From a virus (lineage: Duplodnaviria; Heunggongvirae; Uroviricota; Caudoviricetes): a DNA stretch of 36,648 nucleotides. The stretch lies in the IMG/VR virus record IMGVR_UViG_2675903330_000001; one strand, given 5' to 3'. Numbering within the stretch: position 1 is the stretch's first letter; each line of letters begins with the position of its first letter. The notes under the pieces are model-generated. The model worked only from the letters and a program-made list of their open reading frames with translations. It did no database searches and was not told the DNA's origin. This document shows positions 6,123 to 30,500 of this stretch, piece by piece. The translations under genes and the position numbers were made by a program.

Positions 6123-6700
6123 TTCAATCTCATAAGTGTATGATCTTGAAAGACATTTCACCCCACAGACCATAGAATATAAAATTCGAACTAACGTTCT
6201 CCTTTTTGCTCGTTTTCTCTCACTACGTTCAAGAAAGATCTCGCAAAAAGAATACGGCGTAGCCGTGCGCGAAGCGCCCATCAACACCTTCTAAGACCTG
6301 CAAGCAGGATTCGAAAGGGATTGGATAGTTCGCTTCGCTCACGTTCACGCCTACGGCGTTCACTCGCTTTTGAAAGGATTTTCTTAGAAAGGGATTTAAT
6401 ACTAGTTACTAACTGATTCTAGTAAACGAACGAAGTGAGTAACAATCACTTTCTAGAAAGGTATTGGTATCCCTTCGGGATTGCAACCTTCGGTTGCTAA
6501 ATTGCTTCCTGATTATAATTTCTCCAAAAGAAAGATTCTTATATTCTAAAGATACTTCTTCGTTTTGATGATGATTTAATCAAATATATGAAGGAGGGCT
6601 TTAGCCCGACTGAATCCAATCACTTCCAAATAGATAAAAAATTCTCGTTATAAATAATAGTGAACTTACTTGATTCACTTTCTTTTAGAGGATTTCCACT

Positions 6701-7150
6701 ATGATCAATACTAAAACTCCTTTCGTACTTCTGGGTCTGGACTCTGAAAACTATGGCAACTTCCATATGCTAGAAGTTTTCGCTAATCGTGGTTATAACA
6801 TCATTCGTCATTCCGAAGACTCCAACTACTCAACTGCTTTCTACGCTTTAAAACGAAATGGTCGTCCTACTGTGATCATCGACTGTTTTACTGATGAGGG
6901 TCGTCTTCAATACAACGATATTCCAGCAATTATTGTTCGTGATGATCTGCCGTTTCAAGTCCGTTCCGGTGACATTGACCTGGGTAGCTTCTTGACTCTT
7001 CGTGAACTGGATGAAGCAATGTTTAATTACGGTAAAGAAACCGCTCAGGAAGCCCCAGAACAAGATGAGGAAGACGAAGACTACGCACCAATCGCTTTCT
7101 CTTCTCACGGTGGCTTCTACGGTTACGATGAAGGCTTAGATATGCTGTAA
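6701..7150 (+). CDS. hypothetical protein (149 aa) with acidic C-terminal tail
   Basis: AGAGGA RBS; codon usage strongly biased to E. coli optimal codons; C-terminus EAPEQDEEDEDYAPIAF ... FYGYDEGLDML. Confidence 0.55.
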   Translation: MINTKTPFVLLGLDSENYGNFHMLEVFANRGYNIIRHSEDSNYSTAFYALKRNGRPTVIIDCFTDEGRLQYNDIPAIIVRDDLPFQVRSGDIDLGSFLTLRELDEAMFNYGKETAQEAPEQDEEDEDYAPIAFSSHGGFYGYDEGLDML

Positions 7151-7185
7151 GTTAGGTCAACCCTTTGGCGTCTTGTCAAGGGGTA

Positions 7186-7214
7186 TTGACAAAAATTTCT
7201 GACTTTTTTATGAT
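7186..7214 (+). promoter_or_regulatory. sigma70-type promoter (TTGACA, 17 bp, TATGAT)
   Basis: Near-consensus -35 and -10 with 17-bp spacer, 57 bp upstream of the 7271 ATG; followed by a second TTGACA and a TTGACCTAG motif that also occurs at 5787-5800. Confidence 0.5.
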
Positions 7215-13822: not shown

Positions 13823-15826
13823 ATGCTTAAATTTCGCCGCGATCTTAACGGTTACGGTGGAGTTATTAATGAAGGGCATAACGATCAATACGAATTTGAA
13901 ATTGCTTTCTCAAGTACACAGCCTTATCAGCGCCAATTTTGGGATGAGCAAAATCAAGAAATGGTGGTATTAGATGAAATTCTGGTACATACACCGGAAG
14001 CGGTTGATCTGTCTCGTCTGAATAATAACGCTCCGTTGCTGTTTAATCATAATTTCGATAATCACATTGGTGTCGTTTGTAACGCTCGAATCGATGCGGA
14101 TAACGTAGGTCGTGCTCTGGTTAAATTCTCTAAGCATGGCACTTTGGCTAATGATATTCGCAATAAAGTCATTGAAGGTACGATGGAAAAAATTTCTGTC
14201 GGTTATGACATTAAAGAATATCACATCGATTATGCCAAAGGACAATTGATTGTTACTAAGTGGGCACCCTATGAACTCTCATTTGTCACCGTTCCCGCAG
14301 ACGATACGGTCGGTTTAAATCGCTCTCTAAATACTATCACAGTTAATTTGGAGGCTAAACGCGATATGACTAAAGAACAAATCGAAGAAATCAAAGAAGA
14401 ACAAGAATCCGCTCAGGTTGAAGAAACTCCGGTAGAAGAAATTAAAGAACCGGAAGTTGAAGAAACTCAAGAGCGCCAAGTTGAAGAGAATAAAGAAGAT
14501 GAAAATCTCGAAGACGGAAAAGACGCTGAACATCCTGAAAGTGTTGATGATGATAGTTCAACTGTTCGGGAAACAGAAGAAGTAAAAGAAGAACGTGAAG
14601 CCGCTCCGGTTGAAGAAGAAAAAATCGAGGAAGTGGCTGAACGTTCCGAAGAAGACGAATTAGAAATTCGCGAAATTGCACGCGAACTAAATATTGACGA
14701 CGAAGAATTGAAACGCGCATTGGCAATTAAAGACATGACGCCGGAAGCATTCCGCACTAAGGCACTAAATAATCTCGTCAATGCTCAACGTAATAACGAA
14801 CAACAAATTAAGGACTCTAAAATGGAAAAAACTTTTGACCTGAACAACGTAATTCGCTCTCTGGTAGATGGTGAAGCTCTGGGTGCTCACGAAGCCGAGT
14901 TTTCTGCGATGGCTGCTACTGCAACTATGCAGCGTGGTCGTGCTGCTCGTGGTGGCTCTGTATTCGTTCCGGCTGCTGCTATGCGTGCTGCTGCTGCTGG
15001 TAACACCAAAGCTGACCTGACTGCTATCACCGACGAAAAACTGCTGACTGAATCCTATGTTGAAATGCTGCTGCCGGAATCCGTTCTGGGTCGTCTGGGT
15101 GTGACCGTTCTGTCTGGCCTGAATGCTCCGGTTGCTGTTCCGAAAATGACTGCTTCCAGCGTTGAATCTTTCGGCTTCGTTGATGAAAACGGTGCTGCAC
15201 CGGAAGGTAAAGCCGAATTTGCTAACGTGAAAATGGCTCCTAAAACTTTCGCAGGTGGCAACCCGATCAGCCGTCAGTCTCTGAAAACCGTTCCGGGCAT
15301 CGCTACCCTGATCACTGATCACATTAACAAAGCTGTTCGTATCAAACTGGAACAACTGATTCTGTCTGATAAAGAAAATGCTCGCGGTCCGGCTGGTCTG
15401 GTTAAACAACTGGTAGACGGTGGTCGCGTTACTAAGAAAGCCGCTTTCAGCTACAAAGACTTCCTGAAAGAAATTGCAGCACTGACCGACGCTGGCGTTC
15501 CTGCTCAGGCGATCAAGTTTGCAATGAGCGGTGCAACTGCTGCTGAACTGGAATCTACCCTGAAAGATAACGGCGTTTCCGGTTATATCATCGAAAACGG
15601 CAAACTGGCTGGTTACGATGTAGTTACTTCTGGCGTTATTCCGGCAGACCACATCGTTCTGGGTGACTTCTCCGGTATTACTATCGGTGAGTGGGGCGGT
15701 CTGGAACTGGATATGGACGACACTACCTACCGTGCACAGTCTGCAATCGTTCCGCGTATCTGGGTAGACCTGGATTATGTTGTTACTCAGCCGGAAGCTC
15801 TGAAAGTTCTTCACATCTCCGAATGA
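13823..15826 (+). CDS. prohead protease - scaffold-like linker - major capsid protein (HK97 fold) fusion
   Basis: N-terminus matches the HK97-type prohead protease pattern (PLLFNHNFDNHIGVV ... ISVGYD ... ELSFVTVPADD); residues about 190-300 are a Glu-rich coiled-coil; the C-terminal about 330 aa is capsid-like with highly optimised codons. Confidence 0.75.
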   Translation: MLKFRRDLNGYGGVINEGHNDQYEFEIAFSSTQPYQRQFWDEQNQEMVVLDEILVHTPEAVDLSRLNNNAPLLFNHNFDNHIGVVCNARIDADNVGRALVKFSKHGTLANDIRNKVIEGTMEKISVGYDIKEYHIDYAKGQLIVTKWAPYELSFVTVPADDTVGLNRSLNTITVNLEAKRDMTKEQIEEIKEEQESAQVEETPVEEIKEPEVEETQERQVEENKEDENLEDGKDAEHPESVDDDSSTVRETEEVKEEREAAPVEEEKIEEVAERSEEDELEIREIARELNIDDEELKRALAIKDMTPEAFRTKALNNLVNAQRNNEQQIKDSKMEKTFDLNNVIRSLVDGEALGAHEAEFSAMAATATMQRGRAARGGSVFVPAAAMRAAAAGNTKADLTAITDEKLLTESYVEMLLPESVLGRLGVTVLSGLNAPVAVPKMTASSVESFGFVDENGAAPEGKAEFANVKMAPKTFAGGNPISRQSLKTVPGIATLITDHINKAVRIKLEQLILSDKENARGPAGLVKQLVDGGRVTKKAAFSYKDFLKEIAALTDAGVPAQAIKFAMSGATAAELESTLKDNGVSGYIIENGKLAGYDVVTSGVIPADHIVLGDFSGITIGEWGGLELDMDDTTYRAQSAIVPRIWVDLDYVVTQPEALKVLHISE

Positions 15827-16724: not shown

Positions 16725-17558
16725 ATGAATATTACACAAGATAACTTAGACATTTTCACGGGGTCGCATGTTGAAGTCTCCGTGTCTACTATGGTGGATA
16801 ACCAGCCGGACTTTTTCGATCCTGCATTTAGTCCTATCGAGAACATCGCAGCATTTCCGACGATAACCGAATCCACAGAGATCCAGACGTTAGAAGAATA
16901 TGACCATGATGTTACTGGTAAGTTGGCTGGCTATCGTAAACTTGAATCAACAACACTCACAGTAAACCGTGTTCTGGATGATGAACATCAAGCAATGTTG
17001 ATGAAAGCGGTAGAGGATAAAACCCCTTTACGCTTCCGTATGTTCTATGTTGTGAACTCTGGCTATAGTGCTGCTAACACAGGATACTACGTCATTTTTG
17101 ATGCATACGTCACATCACACAAAACCCGTGGTAGCGATAACAAAGTTACTACCATCGAATTTAAATTAGATCCTGATGGTGGGATTCTCGACCGTGGTAT
17201 TGCCACCGAAGGCCGGATCTTACGTCAAGGTGATTTTGGTTTGGGCGCTGGTGTACATCCATTCACAGGTCCGATTGATAGCGAAGCATTAGCCGGAAAC
17301 CGTTTCGTAACTTATCAGGGATCGAGCGTATCTAATCCATTTAGTGCTGATACTTCACTAATTCACGTTCAACCTAATGAAGATGGTGGATGGCAATTAA
17401 CTTGCACCGCTTCCGGCGCACCACGTTTACGAGTTCGCACAGTCCAGAAAGACGGTAATTCTGGATGGGTGAAAGTGTATTCCACAGAAGAAAAACCGAC
17501 ACCAGCCGAGATTGAAGCCGTTTCTATCCATGACCGGATCGACTTCGGGGAATACTGA
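16725..17558 (+). CDS. putative tail-associated protein (277 aa), C-terminal motif shared with the tail fiber
   Basis: Weak by-eye resemblance to lambda gpV-type tube proteins; the C-terminal EEKPTPAEIEAVS mirrors DKPTPAEIGAYS in the fiber gene 17632-21156. Confidence 0.35.
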   Translation: MNITQDNLDIFTGSHVEVSVSTMVDNQPDFFDPAFSPIENIAAFPTITESTEIQTLEEYDHDVTGKLAGYRKLESTTLTVNRVLDDEHQAMLMKAVEDKTPLRFRMFYVVNSGYSAANTGYYVIFDAYVTSHKTRGSDNKVTTIEFKLDPDGGILDRGIATEGRILRQGDFGLGAGVHPFTGPIDSEALAGNRFVTYQGSSVSNPFSADTSLIHVQPNEDGGWQLTCTASGAPRLRVRTVQKDGNSGWVKVYSTEEKPTPAEIEAVSIHDRIDFGEY

Positions 17559-17631: not shown

Positions 17632-20600
17632 ATGCAGTCGATCCAATTTAAACGAACAAATGTTTCTGGCAAAAAACCAACGCCGGAACAATTACAGGTC
17701 GGTGAGGTAGCAATCAACCTTAAAGACCATGTTATTTTCACCAAAGACCGAGATCATGAAGTAGTTCAAATCTCTGTTTCTCCTGAAACTCACGCGGCAC
17801 TAGAATCTAAAGTTGATGCTAACAAACAAGAATTGGATAGCACAATTGCAGTAAATGACCGCAATATTCACGCTAAAGTAGATGAAATTAAACAAACTAC
17901 TGATGCAACCATCGCAGCAAATCACGCAGAAATTAACAATAAAGTTGATGTAATTAAACGCGAAACCGACGCGACAATCGAGGCCAATAAAAATAAAGCT
18001 GCTTCCGATCTTGCTGGTGTTAAAGCTGAATTGTCGGATACCATCAACGCTAATAAAAATGCGGCTGCTGTAGCAACTCAGGAACTGGACACCCGCATCA
18101 ATAAAAAAGTTGATGATATTAAATCCCGTACCGATGCAACCATCGTAAGCAATCACAAAGCAATCAATGACAAAGTTGATTTGATTAAGGCAGAAACTGA
18201 CCGCACTATCGCAGCAAATCACGCCTATGCGGAAAATCAGTTAACTGACACCTACAATAACCTTACTGGTGTGATTGCAGCCAATAAGCAAGAGGCAGCG
18301 GATAACGTCGCAGCATTAACCCGTGATGTTGAAGCCAAAAATACAGCAATTCATAGCAAAGTTGACAATAACAAGTCTTACACTGATTCTGAATTGGCAC
18401 GCTTAGAAAGCCGTATTGATGCAGCCGATGGATCAAGTGATGGTAAGTACATCAAAAAGCACGTAAACACTTGCACTGATGGCTATTTGCTGTCTAAGAC
18501 CGCAAACCCTTTTGATGATCCGAGTGCTCTTAATCTTGATTACTTTGGTGCATTTCGCATGAATGACCTGGCGGGTCATATTGCAATGATCTTGCATGTT
18601 CCGCACCCATCCGGCGTTAATCATGCTCGTGGTTTTGAGTTCACTTATGGGTCTAATCCGGTTCATACGGTAAGAACATACGGCTATGATGAATTGGGAC
18701 ATTTGGCATATTCTCACCGCATGTATCATGAAGGTGATAAACCTACTCCGGCTGAAATTGGCGCATATTCGAAAGCAGAAATTGACCGACTGTTCCAGAA
18801 GACGCTTAATTTTGGTATCGAGGGTGGTTGGTTTAAACTAGGCACTTTGACAATGCCACAACAACACGGTCGCACGGCTAAGATCCGTTTGGTTGGTGGT
18901 AACGGTTATAACGTAGGACATAATGGACAAGCCAATATTATCGAATTGGTGATTCGATGCGGCAACAATAGCCCGAAAGGTGTTGTATTCAATGCGTATT
19001 ATACTATTTGGCATTATGAACAACATTTTTGCGCTATTCCAACCGATGGCGACAATTACGATCTTTACGCTTACTACGGTGCACATACAGGATTTGTTTT
19101 AGCAGAATATCAAGTTTCTTCCGGTGGTGTTTCTTTAAACCTGTTGGATACTCCTGAATACCTGGGCGGTGAAAAACCTGTTGCAGATGAAATTTTTGAT
19201 GCTCTTAACATTTCATCGTTCAATAACTTTAGCAACCGTGGAACGTTAAATTTTGGTGGAAACCATCAAGGTCAATATGATATTGAGCATTTAAACGAAC
19301 AACCGACAAATGCTAAAAAGATGTTGCGTCGCTTCCGTAGTTGTGCTCCTGCCACTATCTGGCATGAGACAGTTGATGATAACAAGTATCGTCTTGCTAC
19401 TGGATACGAAGATACAAATCAGGAATTATTGCTGTCAGCAACATCCGGGTTACATATCAAGAAATTAACATTGGATGGCGGTGTTACTGGAAATTCTGGT
19501 ATTGATATTCGTCGAGGACCAAATGAAGCAAGCCATTTTAATTTCATGGATTATCGCACTGGACAAGATGTTCGTAATGGCTGGTTTGGCTTCGGTGATG
19601 GAACAACCAAAGATTTTATTTGGTGGAACGATAACGGTCAAAACTCGATAAACCTGATTGAAGACGGTGAATTACATATTACTGGCGGTAGAGGCCAGAA
19701 AATTGTAATGAATAGCGAAGTGGCATTATCTGAAAATGCTCGTTTGGCTGTCAAAGGTGGTAACTATGGTTTAATCCTTCGTAATGATGGTTCTAGCTTC
19801 CATATTCTTACTACCGATTTAAAAGATTCCTTTGGGACGTGGAATACTCGTAGACCATTTAGTTATGATTTCGCCGAAGGTGGATTAGATCTAGGTGGCA
19901 CAGCTACCGCACGCTGTTTACATCTGGGAATTGATGGTAGCACCCGCATCGAAGATAATATGGTGTTTAGATCAGGGTCTCGTCAGTCAATGGACTATAT
20001 TGAATTAATCCATTGGGGTAACAGTAATACAGGACGCAATAACGTTTTGAGTATGCGAGATTCCAAAGGTTTCTTGGCTGAATTTGAACGCGTGGGGGGT
20101 ACTAACGGCGTTAAAACCAGATTCTTTGGCGAAACATTCACTGATGGTACATTATACCTAAATCAGATGAATAATAGCTCTGAACGATTCTCTATTAATA
20201 ATTGGGGAAATTCAGAAGTTGGTCGCGCGGCAGTGATGGAAGTCGGTGATTCCAAAGGTTATCACTTCTATACTGAACGTAGGACAGATAACAGTTTGAT
20301 GTTTGATGTTGCTGGCGCTTTTACTGTGCATGGACCTTCCGGGATTACTATCAAAAACTCTGCTGGTGCTCGCCACGTCTGGTTTAGAGATGATAGCGAT
20401 ACGGAAAAGGCTGTTATCTGGGCTACAGATGAGGGTATTTTACATATTCGCAATAACCACGGTGGACAATTTACACATCACTTCCAGGGCGCGATGATTA
20501 AACTGGAAGGGCGTGTTCCTTATGCCGCAGATCAAGGACTTATCCGTGGTGAGGTTTCTGGTGGTGCATATGTTGCATGGAGAGACCGACCTGCTGGTTT

Positions 20601-21156
20601 GTTGGTTGACTGTCAACAAAGCGTTGATAGTGCTCATGCTATTTGGAAAGCGGTTGATTGGGGGCGTAACTACATCGCTGCTATGGACGTTCATTGTCCC
20701 GGTGATAGTAATAATACTGCGGCAGCGGTTCTTCATGTTCAGGGTGCTGATTATCAATTCCATGCAAGTGGAGAATTTCATGCCACTGGTAACGGAAACT
20801 TTAACGATGTTTATATTCGTTCCGATCGTCGTCTGAAAATTAATGTTGAAGATTACGAAGAAAATGCGGTGGATAAGGTAAATAAACTCAAAGTTAAAAC
20901 CTACGATAAAGTTAAATCTCTTAATGACCGAGAAGTTATAGGTCATGAGATTGGTATTATCGCACAGGATTTACAAGAGGTATTACCGGAAGCTGTTAAA
21001 ACCGCAAAAATTGGTGGTTTTGATAACCCAGAAGAAATTTTAACAATTTCAAACTCCGCAGTGAACGCGCTTTTAATTAAAGCGGTCCAAGAAATGAGCG
21101 AAGAAAATAAACTTCTTCGTGAACGTCTTGCTGCAATTGAAGCTAAATTAGGGTAA
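17632..21156 (+). CDS. side (L-shaped-type) tail fiber with C-terminal intramolecular chaperone domain
   Basis: 1174 aa; N-terminal about 21-aa repeats (KVD-IK--TDATI-AN); C-terminus SDRRLKINVEDYEENAVDKVNKLKVKTYD ... LLRERLAAIEAKLG is typical of the self-cleaving endosialidase-type chaperone (peptidase S74). Confidence 0.75.
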   Translation: MQSIQFKRTNVSGKKPTPEQLQVGEVAINLKDHVIFTKDRDHEVVQISVSPETHAALESKVDANKQELDSTIAVNDRNIHAKVDEIKQTTDATIAANHAEINNKVDVIKRETDATIEANKNKAASDLAGVKAELSDTINANKNAAAVATQELDTRINKKVDDIKSRTDATIVSNHKAINDKVDLIKAETDRTIAANHAYAENQLTDTYNNLTGVIAANKQEAADNVAALTRDVEAKNTAIHSKVDNNKSYTDSELARLESRIDAADGSSDGKYIKKHVNTCTDGYLLSKTANPFDDPSALNLDYFGAFRMNDLAGHIAMILHVPHPSGVNHARGFEFTYGSNPVHTVRTYGYDELGHLAYSHRMYHEGDKPTPAEIGAYSKAEIDRLFQKTLNFGIEGGWFKLGTLTMPQQHGRTAKIRLVGGNGYNVGHNGQANIIELVIRCGNNSPKGVVFNAYYTIWHYEQHFCAIPTDGDNYDLYAYYGAHTGFVLAEYQVSSGGVSLNLLDTPEYLGGEKPVADEIFDALNISSFNNFSNRGTLNFGGNHQGQYDIEHLNEQPTNAKKMLRRFRSCAPATIWHETVDDNKYRLATGYEDTNQELLLSATSGLHIKKLTLDGGVTGNSGIDIRRGPNEASHFNFMDYRTGQDVRNGWFGFGDGTTKDFIWWNDNGQNSINLIEDGELHITGGRGQKIVMNSEVALSENARLAVKGGNYGLILRNDGSSFHILTTDLKDSFGTWNTRRPFSYDFAEGGLDLGGTATARCLHLGIDGSTRIEDNMVFRSGSRQSMDYIELIHWGNSNTGRNNVLSMRDSKGFLAEFERVGGTNGVKTRFFGETFTDGTLYLNQMNNSSERFSINNWGNSEVGRAAVMEVGDSKGYHFYTERRTDNSLMFDVAGAFTVHGPSGITIKNSAGARHVWFRDDSDTEKAVIWATDEGILHIRNNHGGQFTHHFQGAMIKLEGRVPYAADQGLIRGEVSGGAYVAWRDRPAGLLVDCQQSVDSAHAIWKAVDWGRNYIAAMDVHCPGDSNNTAAAVLHVQGADYQFHASGEFHATGNGNFNDVYIRSDRRLKINVEDYEENAVDKVNKLKVKTYDKVKSLNDREVIGHEIGIIAQDLQEVLPEAVKTAKIGGFDNPEEILTISNSAVNALLIKAVQEMSEENKLLRERLAAIEAKLG

Positions 21157-21194
21157 TTGGAAAGCGGGGAGAAATCTCCGCTAAGGATTCTTAT

Positions 21195-21491
21195 ATGGGA
21201 TATTGGGTAAGTAGTGAAATTAATACTAAAATCGATGCTTTAAAATGGCATGTATTTGATATTCCTAACGGCTATGGTACTGCTCGTGCTGGTGTCGCTG
21301 TAATGCGTCATAATGCTGGTGGTGGGTGGTCTGATGCACATATTAACGTAGATGGTTTGACCGTTGCTCGTCGTCGTGGTGGGACCAATTGGGGATCTAC
21401 TATAAATTCGTTTGTTCCTGCTGGCTGCACCGTCTCCTTTGGTTTAGGGGGTGAAGGTGGTGTTGAATATTTTAAATTCATGGAGTTTTAA
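21195..21491 (+). CDS. small protein, paralog 1 of a tandem triplet (98 aa)
   Basis: AAGGA RBS; shares W-x-FDIPNG(Y/W), Gly-rich loops and a C-terminal YFKF-type motif with the next two genes. Confidence 0.6.
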   Translation: MGYWVSSEINTKIDALKWHVFDIPNGYGTARAGVAVMRHNAGGGWSDAHINVDGLTVARRRGGTNWGSTINSFVPAGCTVSFGLGGEGGVEYFKFMEF

Positions 21492-21493
21492 TT

Positions 21494-21799
21494 ATGGCTG
21501 GATGGATAAATCAAAGAATGTCAAACGCTATTAGTATTTGGGCTAATGGTGGATATTTTGATATCCCCAACGGCTGGGTTACTGATTCATGCGGAATTGT
21601 TTTTGCTCATATGGAAGCCATTAACGGTGCTGGTGATCTTGATTCTGAATTGGCTGTAAATGGATTGATTGAATCAGGTCATCATGCTGGTGATGCTGGG
21701 AGTTGGGGCGCTAGTTCTTTAGTTGGCGCTGGTGCTACCGTTAGCTTTACATTGGGTAAAGGTAGTTTGCATTATTTTAAATTCAGGAGAATGCACTAA
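21494..21799 (+). CDS. small protein, paralog 2 of a tandem triplet (101 aa)
   Basis: GGAG RBS; starts 3 nt after the upstream stop; same motifs. Confidence 0.6.
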   Translation: MAGWINQRMSNAISIWANGGYFDIPNGWVTDSCGIVFAHMEAINGAGDLDSELAVNGLIESGHHAGDAGSWGASSLVGAGATVSFTLGKGSLHYFKFRRMH

Positions 21800-22101
21800 T
21801 GGCATTTTGGGTAGATGGCGCTTTGGGGAATAGGGCGGGTAAAGCAAATCAAGGATGGTTTGATATTCCTAACGGTTGGACAGCCGACGCTTTCGGGACT
21901 ATTTCATTCTGTGCTCATTCTTCCGGTGGTGGCGGTGGTGACTCTGAATTGCTTATTCATGGTTTGTGTGTTTCTGGAAGCCATAAGGGTCATGATTGGG
22001 GACAGATTCATTCTTGTATTGCACCGCAAGGGGCGGTAATTACCGTTAGCACAAATAGGGGGATCGCTCATCTTCGTTATAGACGTTTGAGCAACCGCTA
22101 A
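21799..22101 (+). CDS. small protein, paralog 3 of a tandem triplet (100 aa)
   Basis: AGGAGA RBS; start overlaps the upstream stop (TAATG); same motifs, with a GGGGG loop. Confidence 0.6.
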   Translation: MAFWVDGALGNRAGKANQGWFDIPNGWTADAFGTISFCAHSSGGGGGDSELLIHGLCVSGSHKGHDWGQIHSCIAPQGAVITVSTNRGIAHLRYRRLSNR

Positions 22102-22155: not shown

Positions 22156-22626
22156 ATGACTACTAAATTTGATATTTTTTCTGGTGGCCTCGTTGGTCTG
22201 TTTCTGCATGAAGAAGTAACTAACACCGATCTTGACAGTGAAAGCTATCTGGAAATTCCAGAATGTGCGGCTTTCCCGGAAACTGGTGTAGAACGTTCTA
22301 CTGTCGATGTTCCTAACTTCGGTGGTCCGTATAACCGTAAGCTGGTTGGTCGTATGTCTGTACCGGATATCGAACTTTCGATCAACTACATGCCGGGTAA
22401 CGAAGTACACGAAAAACTGATTAAAGCAACCGAAGACGGTAAGCGCGTACAGATTAAAATTGCTTACTACATCGACGCTACGAAAAAATCTGGTGTACAT
22501 ATCGCTTATAACGGCTTCCTGTCTAAAACTACCATGACTGGTGGTGAGGATGCTGTAGTAGGCCGTACCTTCACCTTTGTAGTAGATGGTGCTCCGGTTA
22601 AACAAGCTGTTTTCCAGAAACTCTAA
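22156..22626 (+). CDS. major tail tube protein
   Basis: 156 aa, immediately upstream of the G/GT chaperone pair and the tape measure gene; optimal codon usage; terminator-like hairpin after the stop. Confidence 0.6.
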   Translation: MTTKFDIFSGGLVGLFLHEEVTNTDLDSESYLEIPECAAFPETGVERSTVDVPNFGGPYNRKLVGRMSVPDIELSINYMPGNEVHEKLIKATEDGKRVQIKIAYYIDATKKSGVHIAYNGFLSKTTMTGGEDAVVGRTFTFVVDGAPVKQAVFQKL

Positions 22627-27561: not shown

Positions 27562-30500
27562 TGGGATTTGAAATATTAGTAGGCGCGGTTATTGCTGGTG
27601 CGTCTGCTGGGATGGCTGCTGCTGCAACGTTTTCTGTTATGACCGCAGTCGCTATCGGTATGGCTGCTGGTGCAATGACCTTGATCGCTTCCACTGTAGG
27701 CGCACCAAAAACACCGAAAGTACAAAGCCCAGATAATGCGGTGACACTAGGAACATCAAACGATCCTAAGACAGTATTACCCGTTCTTTTTGGTACTACC
27801 CGCACGGGTGCAATCTGCGTTTACAAGGCAATTTCACAGCGTGAAAATAACAAGCTGGTACAAATTTTTGCTATTGCCGAAGGTGAGATCGATCACTTTA
27901 AAGCACTGCACATCGATAATAAAAACGTTCTCATTAGCCAGAATATGACAATTCGTGATGGCATTCTCGATAAAGGAAACATTAAAGACGAATACCGCAA
28001 AGTTTTAGAAGTCGAGTTTCGCACGGGTAAAAATCCTAACACTGCATTGGATTTAGCTAAACATCATTTGGGCGCTGATTGGGATGATCGGTATCAGGGT
28101 AACGGCATTGCGACCATGTGTATTGTTTTACGTCGTGATGACAAATCTTTGGCTGCTGGTGTTGATATTCTCCAGCCTAATAGCCAGGTAGCGGTCGATG
28201 TTATGGGCTTAAAGATTCGTAACCTTGAAACCAATGCTATTGAGGCTAGCACTAACGGCGTGGACCAGATTTTCCATTATCTGACAAATACAAAGTATGG
28301 TCTTAGTGTACCGATTGAAAATATTAACGTTGATTCATTCCTGAAAGTGCGTAAACAAGTACGCCAGATGGATTTACATTCCAACGGTGCATGTGATCCG
28401 AACGCCAGCTTTAAAGAGAACTTAACTAGCCTTATGCAGACTTTCGGCGGGGTGATGTTCGAATCCTTTGGACGTATTACGCTGAAACTGGATGCTCCTG
28501 ATATTGTTAAGCATACCTTCAATGAAGACAATATCATGATGGGTAAGGTATCACTGAAAACAGGTGGCACTAACGGTTATTTCAATACCATTAACGCGAT
28601 GTATCAAGAACCATCAATCGACTATTCAGAGCAAATGCTACGTTATCCGGCTGATGCTGAAAACGATGCTACTATTCGTCAAGATGGTCGAATTATCGCT
28701 AAAGACATTGAATATCGTTTTGTTAAGTCTAAAGCCCAGATTGATAAACTAGCGAGTGTAGAACGAAATAAATCTCGTATCACTCAGGTTATCAGCTTTA
28801 TGACTACTGACGCATTCACCGCCGAAGTATGGGACGTTATCAGCGTAACCTATGATGAATTAAAACTGAATAATTCACTTTGGCGTATTACTGCAATTGA
28901 TCGTTCTATTGATTCTGGTATTGCTGGGATGATGACTATCACCGCTACAGAATATAATTCTCAGGTTTATACTGACCTGAACTATGCGGCGACTCCAGAC
29001 AATAGACCTACTGGTTTACCGGATTCAATGACAGTACAGAAACCGACTAATTTCAGAATTAAGGCAACTGGTGAGACAATCCACGGTAAAAACGTTACTT
29101 TGACATGGGATGCACCGGAAGATTTTAACCGCTACGGTTTCCAGATTGATTACCGTGTAAGTGGATCGCCTAACTGGATTAAGCTGGGGCAGACTTCACA
29201 GCAAATTTTCAATATCAATGCACTGGCAAAAGATCGCTCCTACGATTACCGCGTTTGTGCTTTCGGTATTATTGCTCGTTCCGAATGGGTGGAACTGGTT
29301 AACCAGAATCCTACTGTTACCTATGAATTGCCGACTCCGGTTATTCGAATCAAAAATCAGGGTAGCACGCCTGGTACTTTCGAAGGCAATGATCTGATTA
29401 TCGAATGGGAAAATCAGCAACAATTAGATGTGATGATCAACGGTGAAGCTAACAAGTTTAGTGACCTGTTTGAAGCATACATTATCAAGGTAACTAACAA
29501 GGCTGGTAAGTCTATTCAGTACCGTACCCGCGATCCTGAATCATGGACTTATACGCTTGATATGAACCAGTTTAACGGCCTTTCCCGTGAATTGACGGTA
29601 GAAGTATCAGTCAAGGGCTATAACAACTCAGAGAGCGCCCCAGCGCGTTTAGTGGCTATCAACCCACAACATAAGCCGATGAAAGGTTTTAGTGCGCGTG
29701 GTGGCTTTAATACTGCGTTTGTTAGCTGGGCGGATGACGTAGAACATGACTATGCAGGGTCAATCATTCAGTATGCAACCGATAATACTTTCTCCGATGC
29801 AAGGGCAGTGACTACCAATAGCGTTAGTCATACTTCCTTTGATTTGGCTGACGGTGATTATTATATCCGTGGTGCTCACTATGATATTTTCGGTATGGAT
29901 GATGCTGTTTGGTCTGAACCGTATTTCATGCAAATGAAATCTACCATTAGCTGGGACGATCAGGACAAAGAAGCACTGGAAGACCTGATTGGTTTACAAG
30001 ATCGCTTAGATGAAACCATCGCGGATGCTATTGCTCAAGCTGGCGCTAATGCCGATGCTAAGATTGATGCAATGCATAAACAGATTACTACCGAGACAGG
30101 GCAGACGGTCCAAGCCTCAGCCGATACTCTCAAGAGTCTGATTGCTACCAGTGAGCAAGCCAGCGCAACTAAGATTGATCAGGTTAAAGCTGAACTGAAA
30201 GGCGATATCACCAAAGAAGTTAGCGCATCCGCTACTACCCTGAAACAAGCAATTGCTACCAGCGAGGCAGCAAGCGCAAGTAAGATTGATCAAGTTCGGG
30301 TAGAAATGGATGGCAAGATTGCTGGTGTGAATCAGGAAGCAGATGTAAAAATCGATGCTTTGAAGGGAACCATTAACAGCAAATATAATCTGGCAGTTAA
30401 TGCAGATGGTCGCGTGGCTGGTATTCATATGAGCGCAACCAATGATCCGGCAGAACCGACAAGAATCATCTTTACGGCTGATAAAATCGCGGTAGCTCCA

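Follow-up and report, generated by a model that had tools for sequence, protein, structure and literature searches.

What do three small, tandem paralogous genes contribute to a phage when they sit directly behind its tail-fiber gene? The question arises from a 36,648-nucleotide stretch of viral DNA (IMG/VR record IMGVR_UViG_2675903330_000001, Caudoviricetes), referred to here as the window. The window is a siphovirus-type E. coli prophage, an identical copy of which sits next to ydcR in strain 14EC017. The relevant genes are as follows.

17632 to 21156, + strand: side tail-fiber gene (1174 aa), the platform that the triplet is proposed to cap
21163 to 21182, + strand: GC-rich hairpin between the fiber stop codon and the Shine-Dalgarno of gene A
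21195 to 21491, + strand: gene A (98 aa), the position-1 paralog, ending in FKFMEF
21494 to 21799, + strand: gene B (101 aa), the position-2 paralog, ending in FKFRRMH
21799 to 22101, + strand: gene C (100 aa), the position-3 paralog, ending in RYRRLSNR

A small family of ancient paralogs

A sequence-only reading of the locus had noted the three genes as translationally coupled paralogs with a conserved skeleton and strongly differing loops, and this observation is correct. Pairwise BLASTP gives 43% identity for A-B (E 2e-12), 36% for B-C (E 9e-15), and 24% for A-C (E 6e-9), which is far beyond chance. W4, F-D-I-P-N-G-W/Y, G34, D50, N/H-G-L, W-G, and P/G-x-G are invariant or nearly so. The genes use all three reading frames, with a 2-nt spacer between A and B (TAA-TT-ATG) and a 1-nt overlap between B and C (TAATG). 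Each start is preceded by a Shine-Dalgarno, that of the next gene being embedded in the conserved C-terminal codons, where F-M-E-F is ...ATGGAGTTT and R-R-M is AGGAGAATG. The 2-nt gap and 1-nt overlap persist even in the most distant loci, which supports translational coupling. A promoter and terminator scan found nothing specific to the module. It did not call the hairpin ahead of gene A, as no T-run follows, although this element folds at -14.7 kcal/mol (z -2.5), is conserved in the T4-like loci, and is annotated as a terminator in phage G2248. It may be an attenuator or RNA-stability element.

The flanking genes also lie as had been described. The upstream fiber contains Pfam Gp34_trimer (aa 644-745, E 2e-15) and Peptidase_S74 (aa 1064-1123, E 5e-15) domains and matches phrog_1699 'long tail fiber distal subunit' at E 2e-135. 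Downstream lies a tail-tube gene followed by the tail assembly chaperone (G/T) genes and the tape-measure gene.

None of the three proteins matches a Pfam or PHROG family, the only sub-threshold PHROG hits being to 'tail protein' families (E 0.008-0.05), and RefSeq annotates them as hypothetical proteins. The family is very small. A word-indexed search of 5.8 billion clusters returned 10 hits for B and 35 for a three-paralog profile, all from E. coli, Shigella, or Salmonella. An exhaustive profile search of 1.84 billion representatives returned 20 hits, of which about 16 are genuine ~100-aa relatives, the rest being ankyrin or other repeat artefacts as judged by Pfam. For gene B, some relatives carry an N-terminal extension before the Trp helix.

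All three genes are under purifying selection, with a whole-gene dN/dS of 0.04-0.29 in five comparisons (0.04-0.24 for A and 0.08-0.29 for C). The loops are the most variable parts of the proteins but are not hypervariable in the sense of diversifying selection, hence the earlier suggestion of hypervariable loops is only weakly borne out. A neighbour-joining tree groups position-1, position-2, and position-3 proteins separately across all contexts, indicating that the triplication is older than every known member. The three are distinct, ancient, non-redundant orthologous groups, a point which the sequence-only reading did not see.

Strict linkage to S74 fibers and interchange with gp38

In ten independent lineages the arrangement is the same: exactly one A, one B, and one C, in that order, right after a fiber gene ending in a Peptidase_S74 chaperone, and never one, two, or four intact copies. 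These are the window-type prophages, three Salmonella prophage lineages (L005, L006, and L023/24), the T4-like Krischvirus phages G37-3 and G2248/UPWr_E1, a T7-type fiber with a Phage_T7_tail N-terminus (L009/L010), and three metagenomic lineages (L011-13, L021, and L022). Of the 24 E. coli genomes that have any trace, 22 carry an intact triplet.

Interestingly, the slot occupied by the triplet is elsewhere occupied by the gp38 adhesin of T2-type phages. In Krischvirus FL20 the gene order is gp37, gp38 adhesin, a 79-aa ORF, and the holin t, whereas in the congeneric G37-3 it is gp37, A-B-C, the same 79-aa ORF, and the holin. Searches with two gp38 sequences by tblastn found nothing in about 99% of the G37-3 genome or in the window, while the positive controls scored E below 1e-100. 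Nucleotides 20111-21111 of the window are 88-94.5% identical to gp37 of T-even phages. In the Tequatrovirus JE01, the last ~330 residues of gp37 are 94.5% identical at the DNA level to the window's fiber and the mature tip is essentially identical, yet the gene is followed by a classical 259-aa gp38.

Two E. coli genomes show the reverse event. In TO6, a fiber 87% identical to that of the window is followed by a gp38 92% identical to that of JE01, and then by a chimeric ORF. This ORF starts with MVYNIIIGA, the first codons of the Krischvirus 79-aa ORF, and continues with the back half of gene C. A gp38 cassette from a T4-like phage has thus overwritten A, B, and half of C, with breakpoints near window positions 21111 (inside the chaperone) and 21911 (inside C). 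A third state is seen in Krischvirus KFS-EC, in which an illegitimate recombination between the Gly-codon runs of A and C deleted B and frameshifted the rest. Its fiber tip is a different module. Comparative genomics shows that the cassette of docking strand, chaperone, and A-B-C moves horizontally between sipho-, myo-, and podoviruses and is interchangeable with the cassette of chaperone and gp38.

Predicted docking strand, fold and Trp helix

The following features of the fiber and the triplet bear on how the two may fit together.

20806 to 20820, + strand: codons for D-V-Y-I-R (aa 1059-1063), the last strand of the mature fiber and predicted docking base, with autocleavage predicted between R1063 and S1064
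20821 to 21153, + strand: C-terminal intramolecular chaperone (IMC) of the Peptidase_S74 type (PF13884), predicted to be released after trimerisation
21204 to 21206, + strand: Trp4 codon of A, a proposed docking prong at the start of the predicted N-terminal helix
21503 to 21505, + strand: Trp4 codon of B, a proposed docking prong
21808 to 21810, + strand: Trp4 codon of C, a proposed docking prong

In phage S16, gp38 attaches after IMC autocleavage through three conserved tryptophans at the apex of three N-terminal helices, which occupy three symmetry-equivalent pockets on the gp37 base (PMC6851490). The DVYIR strand immediately before the cleavage site forms that triangular base (PMC7917993). 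The window's fiber reads GNGNFNDVYIR before the predicted cleavage site and SDRRLK after it, and every triplet-bearing fiber has an equivalent strand: DVYIR, DIYIR, DVQVR, NYYLR, or DIMMR. DIYIR is found in G2248/UPWr_E1, whose fibers differ from the window's upstream of this strand yet keep an intact triplet. The IMC matches that of S16 gp37 in PDB 6F45 (E 1e-5), but the mature tip shows no sequence match to S16 gp37. The docking argument therefore rests on JE01, TO6, and FL20 and on the DVYIR strand.

AlphaFold2 with the family alignment gives confident single-chain models for B (pLDDT 87.5, pTM 0.72) and A (pLDDT 83). Both are predicted to have an N-terminal helix (residues 2-12/13) followed by a seven-stranded sandwich, the helix being of lower confidence, as expected for an element that packs only in a complex. 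The top 50 Foldseek matches in the PDB are almost exclusively gC1q/TNF (E from 7e-4, TM 0.40-0.56), and Foldseek against BFVD returns phage tail-fiber proteins, 'C1q domain-containing' proteins, and collagen-repeat proteins. The predicted fold is therefore the one used for trimeric distal knobs. No sequence-level membership in C1q or TNF is detectable, as Pfam gives no hit for any of the three proteins and a profile search against PDB sequences returned no C1q or TNF chain. The latter hit only designed 'Pizza' propellers, an artefact in which a roughly 20-residue motif (IPNGxxxDSAG) is summed over 6-7 identical repeats, each stretch alone having an i-Evalue above 200. Compared with the globular head of complement C1q and its superfamily, the phage domains are shorter (about 85 aa versus about 130 aa, with 7-8 predicted strands) and carry an N-terminal helix instead of a collagen stalk, and the relationship may be convergent.

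Across 63 family members, only eight positions are at least 85% conserved with the same residue in all three paralog groups: W4, I-P-N-G, and three glycines. The N-termini (MGYWVSS, MAGWINQ, MAFWVDG) resemble the three Trp motifs of the gp38 attachment domain (PGWIGSS, QRWMSQA, PCWMSQF). This resemblance is only suggestive as it is too short for a statistical test. Trp4 is replaced by Q, L, M, or N in A and/or C of the most distant loci. Despite the shared slot, there is no detectable homology to gp38, with alignment of the family profile to JE01 gp38 by hhalign giving a probability of 0.3% and no Pfam hit at E<=1. gp38 is one 259-aa chain with a three-helix bundle, a β-helix, and a polyglycine-II sandwich, bound 1:3 to the fiber, whereas the triplet is three ~100-aa proteins with a predicted jelly-roll fold, Gly runs of at most five residues, and a proposed 3:3 binding mode.

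Candidate roles of the triplet

The best-supported reading, held with moderate confidence, is that A, B, and C are the three subunits of a separately encoded tail-fiber tip adhesin. Following the established S16/T2 paradigm, the fiber would trimerise with the help of its IMC and cleave itself after NDVYIR, and departure of the chaperone would expose a triangular base with three equivalent pockets. It is inferred that A, B, and C, made in equal amounts by translational coupling, each fold into a compact C1q/TNF-type jelly-roll and assemble 1:1:1 into a pseudo-threefold knob. The three N-terminal helices carrying Trp4 may then plug into the three pockets, as gp38 does with three Trp-tipped helices in a single chain, leaving the variable Gly-rich loops to contact a host receptor. 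In the absence of experimental or proteomic evidence that A, B, or C are in any virion, and with single-chain models only, incorporation into the virion, the heterotrimer, Trp docking, and receptor binding remain inferences. The low dN/dS shows no signature of an arms-race adhesin, and KFS-EC is a viable isolate with the triplet destroyed and no gp38 in the slot, so a cap is not always required. A more specific possibility, which is tentative, is that the heterotrimer is obligate and is a viral counterpart of the C1q A/B/C head, docking symmetrically on the self-cleaved fiber but presenting an asymmetric receptor-binding face. This would be a second, structurally unrelated solution to the problem that gp38 solves by binding as a monomer to a trimer.

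The sequence-only reading had offered diversified small binding modules at the fiber tip or, alternatively, a triplicated exclusion or immunity factor. The first of these is strongly backed by the comparative evidence, although the arrangement points to one heterotrimer rather than three diversified copies. It may instead be that each paralog forms its own C1q-like homotrimer and that any of them can cap a fiber, such that the particle displays a mixture of three receptor specificities. C1q/TNF domains usually homotrimerise and all three proteins keep W4 and the FDIPNG box, so each could dock on its own. Only one position (E/R/R at B position 99) is conserved within every paralog group yet differs between them, giving little direct sign of asymmetric interfaces. 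However, alternative adhesins should show copy-number variation and shuffling of order, whereas all ten lineages keep one of each in fixed order with conserved coupling, and each ancient group is retained under purifying selection. This alternative is considered unlikely.

A role as assembly chaperones or transient tip caps that are absent from the mature virion, as with T4 gp38/gp57A, Pam3 gp25, or the Alteromonas A5/V22 chaperone caps, is similarly doubtful. The slot after gp37 holds a chaperone in T4 itself (PMC6851490), purifying selection without strong loop diversification fits a chaperone as well as an adhesin, and KFS-EC is viable without the triplet. Conversely, the fiber already carries its own IMC, there is no similarity to any Tfa/TAP or T4 gp38 family, the predicted fold is that of distal receptor-binding knobs and not of known chaperones, and the protein replaced on identical tips in JE01, TO6, and FL20 is the adhesin type of gp38. 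Although exclusion genes such as cor and llp may lie beside receptor-binding genes in some phages, a superinfection-exclusion or immunity factor, or another moron, is very unlikely and is contradicted by the presence of the triplet in late structural operons of strictly lytic T4-like and T7-like phages, by sequences (N-termini MGYWVSSEINTK, MAGWINQRMSNA, and MAFWVDGALGNR) that on direct reading show no signal peptide, lipobox Cys, or transmembrane segment, by the lack of an independent promoter, by its absence away from an S74 fiber at all loci examined, and by its reciprocal replacement by a structural adhesin.

An externally encoded adhesin on an IMC-processed fiber is a known role, and TNF-like receptor-binding modules in phage fibers are also known. 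Covalent C1q/TNF-like knobs, including ECOD 10.3.1 modules in Klebsiella phage receptor-binding proteins, sit at the distal end of trimeric fibers (bioRxiv 10.64898/2026.05.12.724579) but are part of the fiber polypeptide and therefore homotrimeric. Pam3 gp24 similarly combines an N-terminal docking helix, a TNF-like sandwich, and glycine-rich distal loops for the receptor (PMC9608196), but it is a homotrimer with a large 12-motif polyglycine domain that docks on the baseplate and needs the chaperone gp25. As far as the searched literature shows, the new elements here are the protein family itself, its detachment from the fiber gene, its split into three conserved paralogs, and its interchange with gp38 across phage morphotypes.

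Fibers that end in a self-cleaving chaperone and have no receptor-binding domain of their own are common, and it has been stated that they probably rely on "undetected external adhesin partners" (bioRxiv 10.64898/2026.05.12.724579). The triplet is a concrete candidate for such a partner, and its small size (0.9 kb) and modularity make it attractive for host-range engineering. The TO6 and KFS-EC remnants give direct traces of adhesin-cassette exchange between lytic and temperate phages. If the heterotrimer model holds, it would be a rare case of a phage receptor-binding knob built from three different subunits, and would show how the symmetry problem at a fiber tip can be solved in a way opposite to gp38.

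Surroundings of the fiber and A-B-C cassette

Two genes with tail-tube similarity, both matching phrog_158, flank the fiber + A-B-C cassette in the window. The cassette therefore appears to be inserted within the tail-tube region of this siphovirus, an unusual place for a side-fiber module. Further upstream, the capsid gene encodes a 667-aa product. In the Salmonella relatives the equivalent gene carries Peptidase_S78 plus Phage_capsid domains, so it is a fused prohead protease and major capsid protein. The window features are as follows.

13823-15826, capsid gene
16725-17558, gene with tail-tube similarity
21163-21182, GC-rich hairpin
21255-21275, FDIPNG box (with paralogous sites)
22156-22626, gene with tail-tube similarity

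The GC-rich hairpin (GCGGGGAG/CUCCGC; -14.7 kcal/mol, z -2.5) lies between the fiber stop codon and the Shine-Dalgarno of gene A. It is conserved in the T4-like loci and is annotated as a terminator in the Krischvirus phage G2248. It could lower A-B-C expression relative to the fiber, as a 3:1:1:1 ratio would suit a heterotrimer cap, however this is speculation. In E. coli 14EC017, an otherwise identical prophage carries an IS421 between the fiber gene and gene A and an IS1A in the tail-tip region (18806-19918 and 27620-28317 of that locus), and this copy is probably defective.

Motif resemblance and loss of Trp4

At the FDIPNG box, the motif IPNGxxxDSAG resembles the blade motif of NHL/'Pizza' beta-propellers. 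The motif produced spurious summed hits to designed repeat proteins and to ankyrin-repeat giants. In the most divergent lineage, represented by the metagenomic contigs L021 and L022, the fiber ends in TDIMMR|SD. Here A and C lack Trp4, with Q and L respectively, and only B keeps a Trp. This could reflect co-variation of the docking strand and the prongs.

Disruption and replacement of the triplet

Phage KFS-EC (locus L007, 5081-5510) represents a natural knock-out of the triplet. Residues 1-89 of A are joined to mid-C through recombination between Gly-codon runs, followed by a frameshift. Interestingly, the phage is a viable O157:H7 isolate, and its gp37 tip is a different module that still ends in NDVYIR.

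The last ~15 residues of the IMC co-segregate with the downstream cassette. The fiber C-termini of the window and of loci L001-L003 and L007 end in ...RLAAIEAKLG with A-B-C, whereas those of loci L008, L019, and L020 (the last from E. coli TO6) end in ...KELKTPFFTKIARKISKYFKF with gp38. This is consistent with recombination breakpoints lying inside the IMC. In E. coli TO6 (6136-7191 of locus L020), and also in ETEC4085, a gp38 cassette has replaced A, B, and half of C. The leftover ORF is a chimera that starts with the first nine codons of the Krischvirus 79-aa ORF, a direct footprint of gene flow from a lytic T4-like phage into a temperate siphovirus prophage.
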